A stretch of 64,000 nucleotides of DNA, taken from assembly GCA_017612655.1 (NCBI GenBank), contig JAGAFM010000047.1:10478-74477 (forward strand), read 5' to 3'. The position numbers and the translations under genes are program-made. Source of the stretch: Clostridia bacterium (GTDB lineage Bacteria; Bacillota; Clostridia; Oscillospirales; CAG-272). Positions within the stretch are counted from its first letter, which is position 1. Each line of letters opens with the position of its first letter. Of this stretch, positions 20,894-47,188 are shown piece by piece. Under the pieces are notes generated by a model. It was not told where the DNA came from and did not search any database. It worked only from the letters and a program-made list of their open reading frames with translations.

Positions 20894-20979
20894 TGCCGGA
20901 AACCGGGCTTGAACCGGTACGAGAGGTTAGTCCCGCGGGATTTTAAGTCCCGTGCGTCTACCAATTCCGCCATTCCGGC
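20894..20979 (-). tRNA. tRNA-Leu (anticodon UAA)
   Basis: Minus strand reads GCCGGAATGGCGGAATTGGTAGACGCACGGGACTTAAAATCCCGCGGGACTAACCTCTCGTACCGGTTCAAGCCCGGTTTCCGGCA. It has a 7-bp acceptor stem, anticodon loop CTTAAAA, a long variable arm and a GTTCAAG T-loop. No CCA is encoded. Confidence 0.92.
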
Positions 20980-21023: not shown

Positions 21024-21179
21024 GATTCGCACAAAAAAAACGGATTGAGGCCGCAAAAAACGGTCCACGCGAAAGGCGCGCCTCAAAAGAACCGCTGCAA
21101 TGGAAACCTTTCCGAAAAAGTTTTCTATTTATCTGTACAAAACCGTTTCCATATGTTATAATTGAGGATGGATTGTTAT

Positions 21180-22142
21180 ATGGAAGGAAAATGTGAGAAA
21201 GGCATGAAGCAAGACAGCCGAACCCGTTCCGGGAAACCCGGTTCCACCCGTTCCGGGCCGCGGAATCATTCGGATTTCAAAGGATACAACAACAGTTACA
21301 CCCGGTATCCTGCCTCCCGTGCGACAACCGGGGAGAAGGCAGCATCCAAACCTGAGGAGAAGAGCGAAGAATCCAGAGAGACCGGAGCGGTAATCGGAAG
21401 GAACGCGGTTCGGGAGTTGCTCCGTTCCGGACTTCCCGTTGACAAAATATTCGTCTCCCGCGGGGAACGCGAGGGCTCCATCACCATGCTCGTCTCGATG
21501 GCCCTCGAGCAGAAGATCCCCGTCATCGAAGTGGACCGCAGAAAGCTGGATCTTCTGTCCGGATCGATTCCTCATCAGGGCATCGTCGCAATGGCTGCGC
21601 AGAAAGAATACTGCTCGGTCGAAGACATTCTGGAAATCTCCCGCACACGGGGAGAGCCGCCCCTGATCGTCATCGCGGATAACATCAACGACCCCAACAA
21701 TCTCGGAGCGCTGATCCGGTGCGCGGAAGGCGCCGGGGCTCACGGTGTCATCATTCCGAAGCGTCACTCGACGGGAATCTCTCCTGCCGTAATCCGGGCT
21801 TCGGCAGGCGCATCGGAACACATGGCCATCGCAAAAGTCACCAATATCGCGCAAACGCTGGAAGAACTCAAAAAGCTGGGGATCTGGACTTACGCAGCGG
21901 AGGCAGACGGAACTCCTTACGACCAAACCGATTTCGCAGGGCCCTGCGCACTCGTCTTCGGGAGCGAAGGCGAGGGGATATCCCAGAACGTACGTTCCCA
22001 CTGCGACTTCACGGTATCCATTCCCATGTACGGAAAAATCAACTCTCTCAATGTCTCGGCAGCGGCGGCTATCATCACCTACTCGGCAAAACAGGCTCAG
22101 GTGAGACAGCGGGCGTCCGGTCCGGCAGATCCTATCAAATAA
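21180..22142 (+). CDS. rlmB: 23S rRNA (guanosine-2'-O)-methyltransferase, TrmH/SpoU family
   Basis: SPOUT motifs are present (NLGALIRCAEGAGAHGVI, LVFGSEGEGIS, IPMYGKINSLNVS) behind a basic low-complexity N-terminus. The ATG at 21180 has a GAGGA RBS, while the track ORF starts at a TTG at 21162. The larger antisense ORF 21156-22238 is rejected. Confidence 0.85.
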   Translation: MEGKCEKGMKQDSRTRSGKPGSTRSGPRNHSDFKGYNNSYTRYPASRATTGEKAASKPEEKSEESRETGAVIGRNAVRELLRSGLPVDKIFVSRGEREGSITMLVSMALEQKIPVIEVDRRKLDLLSGSIPHQGIVAMAAQKEYCSVEDILEISRTRGEPPLIVIADNINDPNNLGALIRCAEGAGAHGVIIPKRHSTGISPAVIRASAGASEHMAIAKVTNIAQTLEELKKLGIWTYAAEADGTPYDQTDFAGPCALVFGSEGEGISQNVRSHCDFTVSIPMYGKINSLNVSAAAAIITYSAKQAQVRQRASGPADPIK

Positions 22143-22160
22143 GAAAGGTCGGTGCAACGT

Positions 22161-25115
22161 ATGACTTCTACTCCGGAGAACGATTTCGTCAGCATGTCTG
22201 ATGCACTGCGGCAGAAACTGGAAGAAGGCCTCCGGCAAAACGAATCGGACCAGGATCTGCTTACCGCAGATGCGGAAGCAGAACAGCCATCGGACACAGA
22301 CCTGGACACGTTTCGCGAGAGCGACGTGGAAAACTACGAAGAAAAGAAAAGAATCGCGGATGCCGTGGCGGCGTCTGTTTCCGACGAAGAGGTTTCCGAC
22401 GAGGAACTGGAGGAAATCCTGCGCCGTTATCTGTCCAGCAACGGGACAACCGTTGTCAAGGGCGCTGTCGCGACGCCTGAACCTCAGGAAAAACCCAGTT
22501 CAGAGGCAGAAGAGCATCCCGCAGCGGAGCCGGCTGAGGCAGAAGGTGCCGACCTGGAAAAAGATATCGAAGATCTTCTGAACGGCTTTGAGTTTCCGGA
22601 CGCGGATGAGTCCGAAGACGGTGAACCCGGGGACGAAACAAAATCTCACGAGGTCGCGGAAAGCGTCTCCGATTTCTCGGAAGAGGAAGAACCCGTAGAA
22701 GAGGTAATCTACGAGGAACCCGTTCAGAACGAAGAATCTGCAGAGCAGCCCCAGGAAGAAGCATCCGAAGAGGCCGGTTCGGGCGAGACTGACGACGGGA
22801 ATCTTCCCGAAGACACTACCAACGAACCCGTTTCGGATGAAGATTCCTCCCAGGAACCGATCCTTGATATCCCGAACCCGGAGGAACCGCTGAGTCTGGA
22901 AGATCCGTTTGTCGCAGAAACCTCAATGGAGGAACCTCAGGAAGAGATTCTCTCCGAGGGGGAGCCGGCTGAAGTTCCTTCGGAAACGGAGGAAGGGGTG
23001 TCCGGTTCCGAACAGGCGGACGAGCGCTCCGAAGCAGAAGAGATACCCGAAGGGTCCCCTGCTGCCGCCGTACAGGAAACAGATGCCAAAGACTCCGCTC
23101 CTTCCGACGAAGCCGATCTTTCCGAGGAGGATCTCGGAGAGCTCGGAGATCTTCTGGAAGGCATTTCGGAGGGCCCGGATGAAAAAGCCCCCGACAGAGC
23201 AGTGCAGGAAAAAGACGATACCGCCGTCGAGGGAATCGATCAGACCGATATCGACCTTGCAATTGCGTTCGGCCTGGAAAACGAACTGGAAAAGGAGAGA
23301 GACGGGAAAGAGGCGGATCTCGTTCACCGGGCGATCGGTGCAGGCAGACGCCGTCACATCAACGAGCTGCGTTCCTCCGAAAGAACCACGACCCCCAGCT
23401 CCCATGCGGAATACGTTTCCTCCTCTCAAAACAAAGAGATTTTCGCGGAATATAAGAAGAAGTACGAATCGGTTCTGCTGCGGCTTGCCGCTGCGGTGAT
23501 TCTCACCATCCTGCTGTTCTTCCTGGAAAACAACACCCTGCTCGGGATTACCCTTCCCTCCTTCCTGAACCGCGAAATGTACCCCATCGTCTACGTCCTG
23601 ATCGATCTCCAAATTGTTCTCCTTCTCGCAGCTCTGATCGGCAATTCCCTGAAATCCGGCATCAAATCTCTCTTTTCGAAACGTCCGATGCCGGAAAGTC
23701 TCACGGTTACTCTTCTGATCGGAGCAGCTGTTTATACGGCAGTCATTGCTTCTCTTTGCCCCATGCACGGACTCCAGATGTATAATTTCCCGATTTCGTT
23801 CGCGATTCTGCTTCACCTGATTGCTGAATTCATGAATCTGCGGCGCGAAATCATGACCTTCAAAATCATCTCCTCCCGGAAACTGAAATACGTCGTGGAT
23901 TCGATCTCCGGAGAAGAAACCAAAGCAGAAGTCAGTCTCTTTTCCAAATATCTCATGGATGACCCCTCCATGTTCCGGATCAAGCAGACCGAGTTCGTCG
24001 ACCATTACTTCCGGAGGACAGAAGCCTACCCGGTCAGCCGGCTGGCTCTACGGCTCGCCATCCCGGTCGGTGTTCTGATCGCGCTCGTGTTCTTCTGCGT
24101 TCAGTTCGTCATGACGAGGCAGCTCTATACTTCGCTGAACACCTCCTACATCTCCCTGTTCCTGACGCTGCCCGCCGGAACCCTGTTGGCCCTGTCCTAT
24201 CCGATGTATCATGCATCCCGGATCTCCTATGACCGCGACAGTGCGTTTATCGGCGAAGCAAGCCTAGGCGAGTATGCAGACGCTTCGGTCGTTACCTTTG
24301 ACGACAAGGAAGTGTTCCCCGGACGTCTTGCAAGAATTCAAAATGTTCGGATGTACGGAGATTCGCGCATCGACCATGTTATGTATGCCGCAGCCAGTGT
24401 CTTTCATGCGGTAGGCGGCCCTCTCGCCGAAGTATTTGAAACGGCTTCCGGAGAAATCGGATACGCTTCCGATGTAACGCTGGTATCCATTCAGGAAGAC
24501 GGTATCGAGGCGAAGCTGGGCGAAGATACCGTGCTTTGCGGGAAGTGCTCCTTCATGAACCGTTACGGGTACGAGATCAGACAGAGCGAAAGCGAGATAA
24601 CCGGGGAGAAATCGGGAGAGCGACCCATGCTGTACGTGGCTCTCCGGAACAGCATGGCTGCAGCGTTCAGTCTGAGGTATGCTGTGGAGCCTGATTTTGA
24701 ACTGGTTCTGAAGCAGCTGTACCGCCAGAATGTCTGCGTCGGAATCAAGACCAGCGATCCAAATATTGACGACAATCTGCTCGCGCAGAAGATTAAACTC
24801 TCCAAGTATCCGATCCGGATTATCAAGTGCGCTCAACCCGAGGAGACGGAAATCGTAGTGGAGCGGATGTCTTCGGGCATCGTATCACGCTCCGGCGCCA
24901 AGGCCCTTCTTCAGACTCTCGCAATGTGCGAGCGGATCCTCTCCGCGAACCGGACCAACCGGATCATCCGCGTTCTTTCCATTCTCCTGGCCGTTGCGGC
25001 AATTGCCGCCTTTGTAGCGCTCAGGATTTCTCCCAACATCGCACCCATCTGGATTGTGCTGTATCAGCTGTTCTGGTGTATCCCCGTCGTCATACTGTCC
25101 CGATACACCATCTGA
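22161..25115 (+). CDS. Large membrane protein: polyacidic N-terminal region plus degenerate (motif-less) P1B-type ATPase-like body
   Basis: About 985 aa. The first ~420 aa are Asp/Glu/Ser/Pro-rich. The remainder aligns colinearly by eye with the CopA at 44624-47188, but CPC is LPA, DKTGT is DDKEV, and TGES and GDGxND are absent. See findings. Confidence 0.6.
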   Translation: MTSTPENDFVSMSDALRQKLEEGLRQNESDQDLLTADAEAEQPSDTDLDTFRESDVENYEEKKRIADAVAASVSDEEVSDEELEEILRRYLSSNGTTVVKGAVATPEPQEKPSSEAEEHPAAEPAEAEGADLEKDIEDLLNGFEFPDADESEDGEPGDETKSHEVAESVSDFSEEEEPVEEVIYEEPVQNEESAEQPQEEASEEAGSGETDDGNLPEDTTNEPVSDEDSSQEPILDIPNPEEPLSLEDPFVAETSMEEPQEEILSEGEPAEVPSETEEGVSGSEQADERSEAEEIPEGSPAAAVQETDAKDSAPSDEADLSEEDLGELGDLLEGISEGPDEKAPDRAVQEKDDTAVEGIDQTDIDLAIAFGLENELEKERDGKEADLVHRAIGAGRRRHINELRSSERTTTPSSHAEYVSSSQNKEIFAEYKKKYESVLLRLAAAVILTILLFFLENNTLLGITLPSFLNREMYPIVYVLIDLQIVLLLAALIGNSLKSGIKSLFSKRPMPESLTVTLLIGAAVYTAVIASLCPMHGLQMYNFPISFAILLHLIAEFMNLRREIMTFKIISSRKLKYVVDSISGEETKAEVSLFSKYLMDDPSMFRIKQTEFVDHYFRRTEAYPVSRLALRLAIPVGVLIALVFFCVQFVMTRQLYTSLNTSYISLFLTLPAGTLLALSYPMYHASRISYDRDSAFIGEASLGEYADASVVTFDDKEVFPGRLARIQNVRMYGDSRIDHVMYAAASVFHAVGGPLAEVFETASGEIGYASDVTLVSIQEDGIEAKLGEDTVLCGKCSFMNRYGYEIRQSESEITGEKSGERPMLYVALRNSMAAAFSLRYAVEPDFELVLKQLYRQNVCVGIKTSDPNIDDNLLAQKIKLSKYPIRIIKCAQPEETEIVVERMSSGIVSRSGAKALLQTLAMCERILSANRTNRIIRVLSILLAVAAIAAFVALRISPNIAPIWIVLYQLFWCIPVVILSRYTI

Positions 25116-34443: not shown

Positions 34444-34668
34444 ATCGGTTTCCATCCCTTCAAATCCGTTTTGAGTCACCTTTCTAGCTTTTTTCACTTT
34501 ATCACAAGAGCAGGCCCCAGTCAAGAGATTTCGGAACAATTGTGGGTAGGTCGAAGCTCCATTTTTTCATGCCATCTTGTCAGTGTTCTCTTCCTATGCT
34601 ATAATGAGGCAGGTGCATTGTTCAGATCAGCCAGAATGCTTTTTCGGAGAGGAGAATCCATTCCCGCT

Positions 34669-36708
34669 ATGACACAAAAAATCAACCTTCTGACCGACGA
34701 AACCGGAATCCTTCGCGCCATTGAACTCAAAGACGGGGTAACCGCATTTTCCGTTTTGGACCGGGGCGTCTCTGCCGTCTTCAACGGGAAGGAATACACC
34801 GATCCTTCGCTGTTTGAAGTCGTTTGGACTCCGCTTGGAGACTGTTTTGAAAAAACCGTTGTCTTTCGCGCTCCGGAAGACGGCGTTCTGGAGTCGGTTT
34901 CTGTTTTGGACCTCTCTTTCCCTGAAATGATCGAGCTCCACTATCACGACGACAAGACGATCTGGCACGTCCCCATGAGTGTCTTCGTCCGTTATCCGGA
35001 ATACTCGGTGTTTTATGGACTGGAATATCCATACTGGGATGATACGGCTAAGATGGCTTTTTCCCCGTGGCTTCCGATGAAAGCTGGAGAAACACTGGCC
35101 TGCGAGAAGGCTTTTCTTGGCGTTTGCAGACGTTCCGGAAAGGAAATCTCTTCCCACGGCCCATACCCTGGAAAGCGGAAGCAGAAATACCATGACATGT
35201 TTTCCCCCGAAAAAGGCGGACTTCCGCAGCATGTTCCGGACGGCGTCATACCGGATGACATGGGTATCCCGGAGGAACAGCTGGACACCGGGGAAATCCG
35301 GGCCATGAGAGATTTCCTCGCCTTACATATCGGACACTATCCCCTTCCGGAGGAAGGATATTTCGTCTGGCAGAACGGCTGGTGGGCGGGACTCTTTCTG
35401 ACGGACAAAGACTGCATCGACGTGATGAGCCGCTCCGGAATTCACGATATTTTGACCGCCATGATGTATTACGGATACGATTCACATCCCAACTGTTTCC
35501 CCAATTATATCCGAGAAGTCCGCTTTGACCCTCTCCGTTTCCCCGCCGTCACTGATGAAATGATCCAGATCGGAGAGCAAAAAGCGATGCGGTCTCAAAA
35601 AAACCGGGACAAGGGAGAGATGATCCTGCATCACGAAGTGGAATGCGATGAGACTGTCCGTACGTCCGGGGAAACCGCGGGCTTTGTCCCGCCCCCGAAG
35701 TATGAAAAGCTGATCCGGATCGGAGAGGAATGCGGCGTCCACGTGGCTTCCTTCTCGACACCGAACAACTCCTATTCAGCATATCCCGAATGGCATGCAC
35801 TGAAAGAAAACGGGACCCCGTACGACTATTTCGGATCCCCTCTCTCCTGTCCCGCCTGCAAGGAATATATGGAACGGCACTTTCAGATGATTGAATCCGT
35901 ACTTCAGGAGACCCGCCCCAGACTCTGGTCCTTCGACGGACGCTGGATGGGGTATCGGGAATTTGACTTGGGTGAAGCGATCGGAGAACAGCCGTGCTGG
36001 TCTGAAAGTCACGGACATCTTCCCGGAAAAAGCAGATATATCGAGTGGAAAAATATCATTGAATTCAAACGCAGGTTGAGGGAACGGTTCCCTGACCTGG
36101 TTATGGAACACTATTACGGGATGAAACGGGGAGGGACCTGGTCTCTTCTATACTTCAACAGTGACGAGAACGTTTTCGAGTGCTCCTGCGCCGACGACAA
36201 CCGGTTTCAGACCTGGCACAACGAAAATGACCGTTTTCGTCCCACCTATCTGAACTACGCCCCGATTTTCGGCGCCGGAGAAGAGCTGGAGTATTCCATG
36301 ATCTCCGCCATCTCCACTGCAGAGTACGCTCAAACCGCAAGCGCTTACCATGCTCTGAAAAACGACCCGAAGAGTCTGGAAATCTTTCGGAAGTGGAAGG
36401 ACTGGGCAGGAAAAAACATTCGGTATCTGCGGGATCGCGACACCCTTTTCGGATGTCCCGGGGATGTTTCGATTGACGGTTCCTCCCATATTTTGGACGG
36501 AGAAGGCTGGGTTTTCCTTTTCAACACCGTCGACTTCGATGACATTGCTGCCCTCAGTCTTTCCGAGATTCCCGGACTGAAGGGGAAAAACTACGAGGCT
36601 GATGTGATCTATCCGGAGACGACGCGCCTTCTTCCGGAAGGCGATATCGTTTCCGTTCCCGTCCGAGCTCACAGCGCCTGCGTGCTCTGGCTGGGAAAGA
36701 AGGACTGA
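34669..36708 (+). CDS. Hypothetical ~680-aa cytoplasmic protein (possibly a TIM-barrel glycoside-hydrolase-like enzyme; unassigned)
   Basis: This long ORF has coding-like composition and its own terminator. I recognise no signal peptide and no diagnostic motif. The start is uncertain (ATG 34669 MTQKINLL; the track starts at 34471). Confidence 0.5.
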   Translation: MTQKINLLTDETGILRAIELKDGVTAFSVLDRGVSAVFNGKEYTDPSLFEVVWTPLGDCFEKTVVFRAPEDGVLESVSVLDLSFPEMIELHYHDDKTIWHVPMSVFVRYPEYSVFYGLEYPYWDDTAKMAFSPWLPMKAGETLACEKAFLGVCRRSGKEISSHGPYPGKRKQKYHDMFSPEKGGLPQHVPDGVIPDDMGIPEEQLDTGEIRAMRDFLALHIGHYPLPEEGYFVWQNGWWAGLFLTDKDCIDVMSRSGIHDILTAMMYYGYDSHPNCFPNYIREVRFDPLRFPAVTDEMIQIGEQKAMRSQKNRDKGEMILHHEVECDETVRTSGETAGFVPPPKYEKLIRIGEECGVHVASFSTPNNSYSAYPEWHALKENGTPYDYFGSPLSCPACKEYMERHFQMIESVLQETRPRLWSFDGRWMGYREFDLGEAIGEQPCWSESHGHLPGKSRYIEWKNIIEFKRRLRERFPDLVMEHYYGMKRGGTWSLLYFNSDENVFECSCADDNRFQTWHNENDRFRPTYLNYAPIFGAGEELEYSMISAISTAEYAQTASAYHALKNDPKSLEIFRKWKDWAGKNIRYLRDRDTLFGCPGDVSIDGSSHILDGEGWVFLFNTVDFDDIAALSLSEIPGLKGKNYEADVIYPETTRLLPEGDIVSVPVRAHSACVLWLGKKD

Positions 36709-44623: not shown

Positions 44624-47188
44624 TCAGCTCACTTCTTTTGTAACAACCGTTCCAGGCTGATATCCGGCTCCCCGAATCGCTTCCGCCAACTGTTCCGGAT
44701 CCGGCTTCCCTTCGCTGAGGAACTGCACCCGGCAGGCATCGTGATCCGCGGAGATTTCCCGGACGGGAAACACTTCTTCAATCGCCTTGCAGGCGTGGCG
44801 CTCGCAGTTCTGGCACATCATGCCCTTGACTTCCATAACAGTCTGATACATTTTTACAGTCTCCTTTTGTATAGTGAGGGGTTCGGCGCCGGTCTTTTCA
44901 AGTTCGGCGCGGATCTTCCAAAGGATTTCGGATTTCTCTTTCCAGGACATTCGACGGCGTCCGGAGCCGGTATTTTTGTCCAGATTCAGGCGATTGAGAC
45001 GAAGTGCGTTCAAGACAACGCAAAAACTGGAAAGGCTCATCGCCGCCGCACAGAACATCGGGCTCAACAGGATTCCGAAAGCAGGATACCATACTCCCGC
45101 GGCGAGAGGGATCCCCAAAACATTGTAAAAGAATGCCCAGAACAGATTCTGGCGGATGATCCGCATGGTCGCCCGGCTCAGCCGGACCGCCCTGACGACG
45201 TCCGCAAGAGAGTCTTTCATAAGAACTACGTCTGCGGAATCCATTGCAATGTCCGTGCCCGCACCGATCGCCATCCCTACGTCAGCAGATGTCAGCGCGG
45301 GTGCGTCGTTGATTCCGTCTCCCACCATTAGAACTCCGCCTTCAAGGGACAGTCTCCGAACCGTCCGGGACTTATCTTCCGGAAGAAGGGAGGAAAACGC
45401 TTCCCCGATCCCCGCTTCTTCGGAAATCCTGTTTGCGGTTTTTTCGGTGTCTCCCGTAAGCATCACGGGGCAGATTCCGAGTTCTTTCAGTTCCGACACA
45501 GCCGCTGCACTGTCCGGGCGTATCGGATCCGAAACCGCGACGGCACCGAGAAACCGATCGTTCTTTGCAAAGAAGAGCAGCGTTTTCCCGTCCTGCTCCG
45601 CTTTCCCGAAAGCAGGCTCCCACTCAGCTCCGCAGCGTTCGAAAACTAGTTTTCGGTTTCCTCCGAGAAAGACGGTGTCCCCGTTCTTAGCCTCCACCCC
45701 AAATCCGACGAGAGTACGAGAGGAGGAAATAGGCTCCGGTTCCATCCCTTCCCGTTCCGAGAAGGCTTGGACCGCCTTGGCAAGGGGATGTTCGCTGCCC
45801 TGTTCCACCGTGACAGCGGCAAGAAGCAGTTCTTCTCTTTGCACTCCGGACGTGGGAAGGATATCCGTGACGGAGGGTCGTCCCTCGGTTACGGTTCCTG
45901 TTTTATCAACCGCGGCGAAAACCAGCTTTCCGGTTTGCTCCAGCGCTGTCGCCGTTTTAAACAGAATACCGTGTCTTGCACCGACTCCGCTTCCAACCAT
46001 GATGGCAACGGGCGTAGCCAGACCAAGCGCACAGGGACAGCTGACCACCAGAACCGAGATCCCCCTGGCAAGCGAGAACCCGATATCCTCCCCGCAAATG
46101 AGCCAGACAACCGATGTGATCAGGGCGCAAAGCATGACCCCGGGAACAAATATGCCCGCAACACGGTCCGCGAGCCTTGCGACCGGTGCTTTCGTAGCAG
46201 CCGCATCGGTCACTGAGCGGATGATCCGGGCCATCGCGGTATCGGATCCGACCCGAACCGCCTCGCATCGAATCAGGCCCGAACAGTTCACCGTCGCAGC
46301 ACTTACCGAGTCCCCGCACTTTTTTTCCACGGGAATGCTCTCTCCTGTCAGGGATGATTCGTCGACCGCGCTCTCCCCCTCCACAACTACGCCGTCCACA
46401 GGAATACTATCTCCCGGAAGCACCGAAAACAGCTCTCCGACGCAAACCGTATCCGCGGAAACGGTCACCCATTCCCCGCTCCGCAGAACAGTAGCCTGCT
46501 GGGGAACCAGCGACATCAGAGATCGGACGGCGTCCGTTGCCTTTCCTTTGGAGATGGCTTCCAGGAGCTTCCCGACGGTAATCAGGGTCGGGATCATTCC
46601 TGCTGACTCAAAATAGAGAGAGGAAAGTCTGTCCTGCGCAGCGGGAACGTTCTCCATGTTCAGGAAGATCAGTTCCGTAAGAACCCAGCAACTGTACAGA
46701 AAAGAAGCTGCCGACCCCAAAGATACCAGTGTATCCATATTCGGGGCGCGATGCAAAAGGCCCTTGACGCCCCGGATGAAAAACGCCCGATTGACGATCA
46801 GGATACAGGCGGAAAGAAGGCATTCCAGACATCCCACGAAAACAGGTCCGCCGAAAGAGGGGAACGGAGCATGGAACATCACATATCCGTCCGCCACATA
46901 CATCAAAGCCGCAAGAAAAACCAGAGACAGAATCAGACGCTTCTTCAGCGCAGGCACCTCGGATGGCGCCCCGTCGGATTCCAGATCGTCCCGGAGCGAT
47001 GCGCCGTATCCGGCTGCCTCAACCGCAGCAACCACCGAAGCTACGTCTGCCTCTCCTTCAACCTGCATGGAAGCGGTCATCAAATTCACGCTGCATTCCT
47101 TTACGCCTGGAACGGAGCGGACCGCCTTTTCCACGTGAGCGCTGCATGCTGCACAACTCATTCCAGTTACGGTATACCGTTTCTGCAT
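44624..47188 (-). CDS. copA: Copper-translocating P1B-type ATPase with N- and C-terminal HMA domains
   Basis: An N-terminal HMA domain ([12 protein letters not shown]) is followed by TGES, CPC ([11 protein letters not shown]), DKTGT, SEHPLA and [11 protein letters not shown] second HMA-like domain sits at the C-terminus ([10 protein letters not shown]). Confidence 0.93.

Follow-up and report, generated by a model that had tools for sequence, protein, structure and literature searches.

A 64,000-nucleotide (nt) stretch of DNA from a Clostridia bacterium (GenBank assembly GCA_017612655.1, contig JAGAFM010000047.1, positions 10,478 to 74,477 of the forward strand), hereafter called the window, carries directly downstream of rlmB a gene for a 984-amino-acid (aa) membrane protein. 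At NCBI, this protein is recorded as 'hypothetical protein J5938_01890 [Clostridia bacterium]'. Homology to P1B heavy-metal ATPases, such as CopA, extends over its C-terminal ~560 aa. The aspartyl-phosphate cycle at DKTGT is the defining feature of P-type ATPases, and this motif has been replaced in the protein and in its relatives. Descended from a P1B heavy-metal ATPase and still conserved, the gene product is probably catalytically disabled, that is, a non-pumping pseudo-pump devoted to binding or sensing. Within the P1B-ATPase superfamily, it belongs to a large and unnamed branch with replaced motifs and an acidic disordered arm, which is probably operonic with rlmB and is found in uncultured gut Clostridia. 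A canonical CopA is encoded elsewhere in the window, and the pseudo-pump is a paralogue beside it, not its replacement. An initial annotation, drawn from the nucleotide sequence alone, had proposed that the protein is not a pump but a pseudo-enzyme of conserved fold and P1B-ATPase origin. The fold, the homology, the motif replacement, and the selection acting on the family all speak for this proposal, the inactivity being a prediction.

Homology to P1B-type ATPases

Profile-profile comparison (hhalign) of the family alignment with a 20-member CopA alignment gave a probability of 96.4% and an E-value of 1.3e-9 over 503 columns in local mode, and 97.7% and 1e-11 over 584 columns in global mode. 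The aligned stretch runs from helix MA through helix M6. The colinearity of the C-terminal ~560 aa with CopA, already read in the initial annotation from six pairs of peptides (all six of which are present), is thus far beyond chance. Identity to CopA is ~16%, and the homology is clear because profiles were built on both sides, single-sequence comparison being too weak: the family profile aligned to the lone CopA sequence reaches a probability of 13-19%, and a phmmer search of the PDB with the single protein sequence returned nothing relevant.

Profile searches point in the same direction. The NCBIfam model of heavy-metal P-type ATPases, TIGR01525, matches the protein with an E-value of 1.5e-9 at 37.3 bits, which does not reach its curated cut-off of 346.25 bits, and two distant family members match it independently (3e-7 and 4e-6). 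Conversely, a 55-member family profile searched against the PDB found LpCopA (3rfu, 3.5e-5) and CadA, a Cd-ATPase (3e-3). Against 5.8 billion proteins, it found a Streptococcus agalactiae heavy-metal ATPase (9e-17) and several Cu+-ATPases (1e-10 to 1e-4). The Pfam scan assigned zero domains to the window protein and zero to 55 relatives, the gathering scores of E1-E2_ATPase and Hydrolase not being reached, and gave no HMA match in the window protein.

Structure prediction, which the initial annotation had suggested alongside a profile search as a check on P-type ATPase ancestry, leads to the same pumps. An AlphaFold (AF2) model built on a 9-sequence alignment had a predicted local distance difference test (pLDDT) score of 69; its best PDB matches were nonetheless LpCopA, ATP7B, and ZntA (E-values of 7e-13 and weaker). 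With a 49-sequence alignment, the core exceeded a pLDDT of 90, and the top 11 Foldseek matches were all P1B pumps (TM-score 0.50-0.53 relative to the target). The best was LpCopA (4bbj, E-value 1.9e-16), with LpCopA, ATP7B, and ZntA falling within 1.9e-16 to 1e-13. These top matches are full-length P1B pumps, aligned over ~680-725 columns; KdpB and CadA come after them, and among the 50 matches listed, all are P-type ATPases. The hydrophobic segments in the hydropathy profile are those that an eight-helix P1B topology predicts, and the MB platform, GIKSLFSKRPMPESL, in the transmembrane part at 23469..23849, aligns with the CopA platform in hhalign.

Replacement of the catalytic and metal-binding motifs

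The motif columns were mapped via hhalign and HMMER, and tabulated in 158 diverse relatives (cluster representatives at 50% identity), to which the counts below refer. The counterpart of DKTGT in the window protein is D717-D718-K719-E720-V721. At the nucleophile position, 717, the relatives carry Asp in 79 cases, Glu in 37, Ser in 10, Asn in 9, Ala in 7, Thr in 5, and Gln in 3. The following position, a Lys in CopA, is Asp in 153 and Glu in 5. Position 719 (the first Thr of DKTGT) is occupied by Lys (70), Arg (28), Thr (21), and others, position 720 (the Gly) by Asp (67), Glu (56), or Asn (19), and position 721 (the second Thr) by Val in 121. No relative (0/158) has DKTGT at the phosphorylation site; a single DKTG string was encountered, and it sits elsewhere in its protein.

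Three observations support this register. In the ungapped HMMER alignment, the M4 Pro lies 43 residues from position 717, equal to the spacing between the CPC Pro and the DKTGT Asp in CopA; hhalign places position 717 at the same site; and the first Rossmann strand ends at residue 717 in both AF2 models.

The remaining motifs follow the same pattern. The CPC metal site has become L-P674-A, with Pro in 157/158 relatives, no Cys, and hydrophobic flanks, and a second Pro, P684, is kept in 152/158. SEHPL corresponds to x-G-G-P-L (Gly in 150, Gly in 157, Pro in 148, and Leu in 156), so that the adenine-binding His is a Gly in 157/158. The GxG of the nucleotide-binding (N) domain is reduced to a single Gly, G784, kept in 126. 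The TGD counterpart is T-S-D869, with Thr or Ser at 867 in 156/158 and Asp at 869 in 157/157, followed by an invariant P870 and a near-invariant Asn (140/158). GDGxND occurs neither in the window protein nor in any of 157 scanned database relatives, hhalign leaving a gap at that place, and the YN (M5) and MSxSS (M6) ligands are replaced in the window protein and its relatives.

The replacement of DKTGT by DDKEV, that of CPC by LPA, and the absence of GDGxND had been noted in the initial annotation, and the HMMER and hhalign alignments agree on each. The disappearance of the TGES loop, also claimed there, is true of the motif but not of its position, which is not simply deleted. The segment aligned to TGES reads F-x-[E/D]-Y in most relatives and F-S-K-Y in the window copy (the alignment being less certain here), within an actuator (A) domain of ~66 aa, against about 115 aa in CopA, that is yet confidently modelled. 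The column of the TGES Glu holds Glu in 58 relatives, Asp in 44, and Lys in 12; K599 of the window copy (23946-23948) is thus a minority state (12/158), versus 102/158 for Glu or Asp.

A classical haloacid dehalogenase (HAD) phosphatase reading, in which D718 would be the nucleophile and D-K-E a DxD motif, was considered for the same loop and rejected: strand 1 ends at 717, the Pro-Asp spacing fits only that register, and motif IV is missing. When HAD phosphatase motifs were sought, the loop was found to read [D/E]-D-x-[D/E]-V rather than the motif I pattern DxDx[T/V], the acidic residues of motif IV were absent, and a motif III Lys was not identifiable; T/S867 is present as motif II.

Distribution and conservation of the family

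A profile search of 1.84 billion representatives yielded 3187 clusters at E <= 1e-3, of which 1475 were at E <= 1e-30; the best 150 of the 3187 clusters all score above 475 bits. A one-genome-per-species scan found a relative in 229 species. Among the 80 of these species genomes listed, all are uncultured Clostridia, Oscillospiraceae, or "Candidatus Flemingiibacterium", from gut, rumen, faeces, and digesters. The open reading frames (ORFs) are intact in 81 genome loci, ranging from 811 to 1396 aa, and the frame of the window copy is open across 984 codons without interruption. Near-identical copies in independent samples differ by 1-5 changes across the 627-aa core.

Conservation is highest where catalysis once took place. 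The mean top-residue frequency is 0.60 in residues 691-745 (the old phosphorylation region), 0.51 in the rest of the phosphorylation (P) domain, 0.49 in the N-domain, and 0.37-0.41 in the membrane segments. Residues conserved at 90% or more include E420, E459, K579, E593, P674, P684, F716, D718, F722, P723, G755-G756-P757-L758, D869-P870, and C926. The initial annotation had asked whether the degenerate motifs persist in homologues, and whether orthologues with intact motifs exist. The substituted residues are nearly invariant across the 158 relatives, a strong selection that it had missed, and no intact-motif orthologue was found among them.

Since none of the 158 relatives has DKTGT at its site or GDGxND, a decaying pseudogene and a sequencing artefact can both be set aside. 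The loss of the motifs would instead correspond to a new function under purifying selection, as judged from these substitution patterns. The strong selection on the altered positions suggests that this new function involves the headpiece, which would not be a passive anchor.

Three divergent members (P0333, P0334, and P0335, with 19-26% identity) all retain the acidic N-terminus, F(D/E)DTEVF, GGPL, and T(S/R)D(P/F)N. This combination of divergence and shared motifs indicates that the family has deep sub-branches beyond the rlmB-linked group. Two database entries deserve a separate comment. P0281, at least 90% identical to the window protein, is labelled as a Candidatus Methanomethylophilaceae archaeon metagenome-assembled genome and lies on a 1.8-kb contig; its archaeal label probably stems from misbinning of a rumen or gut metagenome. 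P0009, a 505-aa 'YidC/Oxa1 family insertase, partial' on a 2-kb contig, joins the N-terminal part of YidC (PF02096) to a 61%-identical family fragment starting from mid-M4, and looks like a chimeric assembly or gene call, not a real fusion.

The acidic N-terminal region

The first 357 aa contain 33.9% Asp and Glu and 5% Lys and Arg, for a net charge of -103 and an isoelectric point of 4.05. The description of the N-terminal ~420 aa as acidic and disordered is therefore right in its composition, and in the pLDDT of ~35 over residues 94-355, but the region is not uniform, as three helices with conserved motifs are predicted ahead of the arm. Two short motifs are conserved there in 77 relatives, one close to the start, (S/T)A(D/E)xLLxKL, and an acidic one around residue 85, (D/E)ELxxLxxxYL. 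The arm itself has 10-13 Asp or Glu residues per 30-aa segment over most of its length, and 5 in the first one. It is followed by juxtamembrane helices, for which the family consensus is DQTDxxLMxAFGMxxEL ... EYxSxxQNKEIFxxYKKxY.

The acidic N-terminus is kept in homologues, as the initial annotation had wished to see verified: across 81 genome loci, the region varies from 185 to 767 aa, with 17-34% Asp and Glu. The arm evolves much faster than the core. For example, a near-identical copy from another sample (P0282) has 43 mismatches over 356 N-terminal residues versus 5 over the 627 residues of the core. The position of the arm in the topology is that of the metal-binding domains in P1B pumps.

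Gene structure and genomic neighbourhood

The coordinates of the gene, its parts, and the associated elements are collected in Table 1.

Table 1. Features of the pseudo-pump locus and of the CopA comparator (positions within the window).
Feature	Position	Strand	Basis and remarks
Sigma-70-like promoter match	21134..21162	+	TGTACA-17-TATAAT with upstream TG; consensus match only; upstream of rlmB; only + strand match near the locus
rlmB, 23S rRNA Gm2251 2'-O-methyltransferase, maximal ORF	21162..22142	+	TIGR00186 (E 8e-65), SpoU_methylase, SpoU_sub_bind
Shine-Dalgarno-like AGAAAGG	22142..22148	+	Read off the sequence; overlaps the rlmB stop codon
Coding sequence, motif-less P1B-ATPase-like protein	22161..25115	+	984 aa plus stop; identical to NCBI entry MBO4229084.1
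N-terminal helical segment, residues 9-93 from the ATG	22185..22439	+	AF2 helices 9-38, 56-75, and 80-93; pLDDT 60-82; carries the family motifs SxxDALxxKL and (D/E)ELEEILRRYLS
Polyacidic Ser/Pro-rich disordered arm, ~262 aa	22440..23225	+	Composition; pLDDT about 35 for residues 94-355 (full-length model)
Conserved juxtamembrane helices, DQTDIDLAIAFGLENEL ... EYVSSSQNKEIFAEYKKKY	23238..23468	+	pLDDT about 75; invariant D363, L369, F373, E420
Helices MA, MB, M1, M2	23469..23849	+	Hydropathy, hhalign, conservation; near-invariant intramembrane E459 inside
Shrunken A-domain remnant, ~66 aa	23850..24047	+	hhalign; pLDDT about 90; FSKY at 23940-23951 in the place of TGES
Helices M3, M4	24048..24221	+	LPA at 24168-24176 in place of CPC; only the helix-breaking Pro retained
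Remodelled P/N headpiece	24222..24956	+	Best-conserved part of the protein; DDKEV at 24300-24314, GGPL at 24414-24425, TSDPN at 24750-24764; without GDGxND
Helices M5, M6	24957..25112	+	CopA metal ligands YN and MSxSS replaced; conserved LYQLFW motif
Canonical CopA paralogue (comparator)	44624..47188	-	E1-E2_ATPase (7e-55), Hydrolase (7e-31), HMA (7e-24)

The ORF extends over 22152..25115 on the forward strand, and counts 987 aa from a GTG. The ATG at 22161 is the likelier start, being preceded 12 nt earlier by the Shine-Dalgarno-like AGAAAGG. The source contig of MBO4229084.1 belongs to a metagenome-assembled genome. The catalytic motifs of the window CopA, used as the comparator, are invariant among its 19 homologues. 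Besides the N-terminal one, this CopA and its homologues have a second HMA-like CxxC domain at the C-terminus.

The true start of rlmB is probably a downstream ATG, at 21180 or 21204, and its stop codon occupies 22140-22142. The gap to the pseudo-pump gene is, therefore, 9 nt with the GTG start or 18 nt with the ATG start. The initial annotation had placed the gene 10-20 nt downstream of rlmB. No forward-strand promoter or terminator match was found between the two genes; together with the short gap, this makes co-transcription with rlmB likely.

The pairing is conserved, as had been proposed for verification: in 78/78 related loci with enough flank, the gene immediately before is rlmB, in the same orientation, the remaining loci ending at a contig edge. 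The two genes are mostly 9-130 nt apart. Downstream, most other genomes have genes for a TIGR03960 B12-binding radical-SAM protein (63 loci) and for DUF2344 (59 loci), and genes for DUF4364, a sigma factor, and a treble-clef zinc finger often precede rlmB. The longer string, found in L004, L006, L026, L081, and ~60 other loci, reads SBP_bac_5, DUF4364, sigma factor, treble-clef zinc finger, rlmB, family gene, TIGR03960, DUF2344, and it is followed in those loci by a YetF/DUF421 gene on the opposite strand. The window keeps only rlmB and the pseudo-pump gene of this string. As TIGR03960, DUF2344, DUF4364, and the others are absent around the window copy, the rlmB pair alone is invariant.

Other candidate associations were considered and discarded. 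RlmB, here (21162-21390, + strand) and in the related loci L001-L087, has a low-complexity N-terminal extension, rich in Lys, Arg, and Asn and then acidic, ahead of the SpoU substrate-binding domain. An electrostatic pairing of the acidic arm with this extension found no support, the extensions being short (median 39 aa) and of mixed charge. A link to the adjacent mgtE was rejected, as this gene runs on the opposite strand and none of the related loci has it, and so was a link to the window CopA, which is 19 kb away. The neighbouring esterase-like gene is on the other strand and is not a conserved neighbour.

The PADLOC check for defence systems gave no match, and the Rfam scan of the locus detected only an unrelated tRNA gene (20894-20979, - strand, RF00005, 58 bits), located between a cysteine-synthase-like gene and rlmB, and on the opposite strand. 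Farther along the window, an ORF of 745 aa (34471-36708, + strand) has no Pfam or NCBIfam match and overlaps shorter minus-strand ORFs; it may be spurious or encode a further uncharacterised protein.

Proposed role and alternative explanations

According to the favoured interpretation, the protein retains the membrane topology of the eight-helix P1B pumps together with a P/N headpiece and a miniature A-domain, and has lost the residues for phosphate binding and transfer, Mg2+ coordination, adenine recognition, and Cu+ ligation. The old positions are now filled by a conserved set: the phosphorylation loop has an acidic [D/E]-D-x-[D/E]-V-F-P, and the TGD site has T/S-x-D-P-N. The protein would run no ATP-driven transport cycle. 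An E1/E2 phosphoenzyme cycle is not expected because Glu, Ser, Asn, Ala, or Thr stands at the nucleophile position in half of the family, because GDGxND and the N-domain His are absent, and because the phosphate-cradling Gly and Thr of DKTGT are Val and Phe. The old phosphate pocket is rich in acidic residues ([D/E]717, D718, [D/E]720, D869, and D873/D874); it would, therefore, repel ATP and suit a cation or a basic peptide.

The headpiece and the membrane domain would probably form a binding or sensing module, with the N-terminal helical element tethered at the cytoplasmic membrane face through the ~260-aa polyanionic flexible arm. This arm would substitute for the P1B metal-binding domains, and could recruit or sequester cationic partners, either proteins or ions. 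Expression would be driven from the rlmB promoter, the gene being the second of a putative two-gene operon. With its fold predicted to be kept, its motifs missing, and purifying selection apparent from the alignments, the family falls under the operational definition of a pseudoenzyme.

Several points weigh against this interpretation. The nucleophile position is still an Asp in the window copy (D717, then D718 and K719), which leaves room for an unorthodox phosphoenzyme, and the motif register depends on HMMER, hhalign, and a predicted strand end. The M4 Pro, the second Pro, E459, and LYQLFW are conserved beyond the need of a mere anchor, which could mean membrane transport or ligand binding. 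Finally, the sole conserved neighbour, rlmB, has no evident functional connection with the protein and identifies no partner.

A more ambitious form of the pseudo-pump interpretation can be put forward only tentatively, and is rather unlikely to hold in full. The family, with this protein as its founder, would then be the first prokaryotic family of pseudo-P-type ATPases to be described, a P1B scaffold turned into a membrane signalling or recruitment device in gut Clostridia. Its acid-lined pocket would bind a new ligand (a cation or basic peptide), cationic partners would be caught at the membrane by the polyanionic arm, and its function would be coupled to ribosome biogenesis via obligatory co-expression with RlmB.

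The main live alternative is a membrane domain that conducts or senses, because the M4 Pro (157/158), E459, and the YQ..W motif of M6 are conserved. The protein would, in that case, be a channel, a facilitator, or a 'transceptor', using the P1B ion pathway with new polar ligands; the headpiece would serve as its regulatory gate, and the acidic arm would collect cations in the manner of an antenna. The second Pro (152/158), the retained MB platform motif, and the location of the arm in place of the P1B metal-binding domains are all consistent with this. Nevertheless, the membrane segments are less conserved than the headpiece (0.37-0.41 versus 0.49-0.60 mean top-residue frequency), no ion-binding constellation is definable, and the neighbourhood offers no link to ion homeostasis, mgtE being on the other strand and present in 0 related loci. 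Such a conduit is possible, but it is a minority prospect.

An energy-coupled P-type pump with unorthodox chemistry is a still less probable explanation. The phosphate acceptor would be D717 or D718, with E720 in the role of the second Asp of classical HAD phosphatases, offsetting the missing TGES loop. The acidic residues at 718 (Asp in 153/158) and 720 (Asp, Glu, or Asn in 142/158), the Thr or Ser and the Asp kept from TGD (T/S867 in 156/158, D869 in 157/157), the A-domain remnant with its mostly acidic residue at the position of the TGES Glu (Glu in 58, Asp in 44), and the rank of the headpiece as the best-conserved region would all suit such a pump. Against it, HMMER, hhalign, and the AF2 strand end put the variable position 717, and not D718, at the nucleophile site, and 717 is an Asp in only half of the family. 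Moreover, no acidic pair equivalent to GDGxND is there for Mg2+, the adenine-binding His is a Gly in 157/158, Val and Phe stand for the Gly and Thr of DKTGT in the phosphate pocket, and the window copy has a Lys in place of the TGES Glu.

A decaying CopA pseudogene, or a sequencing or assembly artefact, could be suspected from the absence of every canonical motif in a contig from a metagenome-assembled genome. It has a negligible probability in view of the uninterrupted 984-codon frame, the thousands of relatives with intact frames and the same substitutions, the near-identical copies from independent samples, and an identity to CopA (~16%) far past recent decay. Just as implausible is a chance or generic Rossmann/HAD-like similarity of an unrelated multi-pass membrane protein, which the lack of Pfam domains in 55 members and the 13-19% hhalign probability against a single CopA sequence might suggest, but which is at odds with the profile-profile alignment from MA to M6 (96-98%), the top structural matches all being full-length P1B pumps (~680-725 columns), the presence of the P1B-specific MA/MB helices and platform motif, and the Pro-to-Asp distance of 43 aa, as in CopA.

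For the pseudo-pump, the consequences are of several kinds. A large family that keeps the P1B architecture without the canonical motifs would show that the pump fold is reusable for a non-pumping role, and would offer structural biologists a natural "dead" P1B scaffold, with which to see what the fold does without its catalytic cycle. The family also constitutes a conserved, apparently housekeeping-linked gene of the putative rlmB operon in abundant gut anaerobes, annotated as hypothetical and absent from Pfam and NCBIfam. As the protein has none of the defining motifs and scores below the curated cut-offs, no heavy-metal ATPase annotation is warranted, and annotators should not derive a "copper ATPase" label from the fold or from weak profile matches. 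The finding is likely to surprise a P-type ATPase specialist. The family is known from uncultured organisms only.

Relation to known systems

The closest matches in both sequence and fold are the CopA-type pumps of the P1B-1 group (LpCopA 3rfu and 4bbj, ATP7A/B, TIGR01525). The pseudo-pump shares with them the eight helices, including MA and MB, the G..L....P..(E/D)(S/T)L platform, the helix-breaking Pro of M4 at 43 residues from the P-loop, the Rossmann core of the P-domain with an inserted N-domain (in which the 'G-I/V-E-A' strand and the T-x-D motif are recognisable), and a cytoplasmic N-terminal extension. It differs by its ~16% identity and its 37 bits, compared with a curated cut-off of 346, and by the replacement of DKTGT, TGES, CPC, SEHPL, GDGxND, the YN of M5, and the MSxSS of M6. 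Its A-domain is shorter (~66 versus about 115 aa), as is the second half of its P-domain (by ~30 aa), a helical element and a polyacidic disordered arm stand where CopA has HMA domains, and it has a fixed partner in its putative operon, rlmB.

The resemblance to the classical HAD phosphatases lies in the HAD-type Rossmann fold of the P-domain, and [D/E]-D-x-[D/E]-V superficially recalls the DxD of their motif I (DxDx[T/V]). However, the invariant Asp of the pseudo-pump is one residue past the nucleophile position, the motif IV acids are missing, and the motif III Lys is not identifiable. The protein is not classed among these phosphatases.

No bacterial pseudo- or degenerate P-type ATPase was found in the literature, although the Saier-group census of uncharacterised P-type ATPase families was outside that search and may list some members; a recent review of open P-type ATPase questions contains no relevant passage on pseudo-P-type ATPases. 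The nearest conceptual precedent is the flippase (P4-ATPase) module of the alveolate guanylate cyclases (P4GC), of which some lineages (Cryptosporidium, P4GC-beta, gregarines, and Tetrahymena) carry a changed DKTGT Asp and A-domain Glu, the degenerate module being retained and required nonetheless (PMC13466520; PMC6592433). In both cases, a P-type ATPase fold would be kept for a non-pumping or regulatory role. The P4GC module is, however, eukaryotic, of the P4 rather than the P1B type, fused to a cyclase, and degenerate in some lineages only, whereas the pseudo-pump family is bacterial and stand-alone, and lacks the motifs in every member examined.

More generally, pseudoenzymes are defined by the retention of an enzyme fold, the loss of its catalytic motifs, and purifying selection (PMC10211241; PMC5106787). 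The pseudo-pump resembles the pseudokinases, pseudophosphatases, and pseudopeptidases in these three respects, its own inactivity being predicted.

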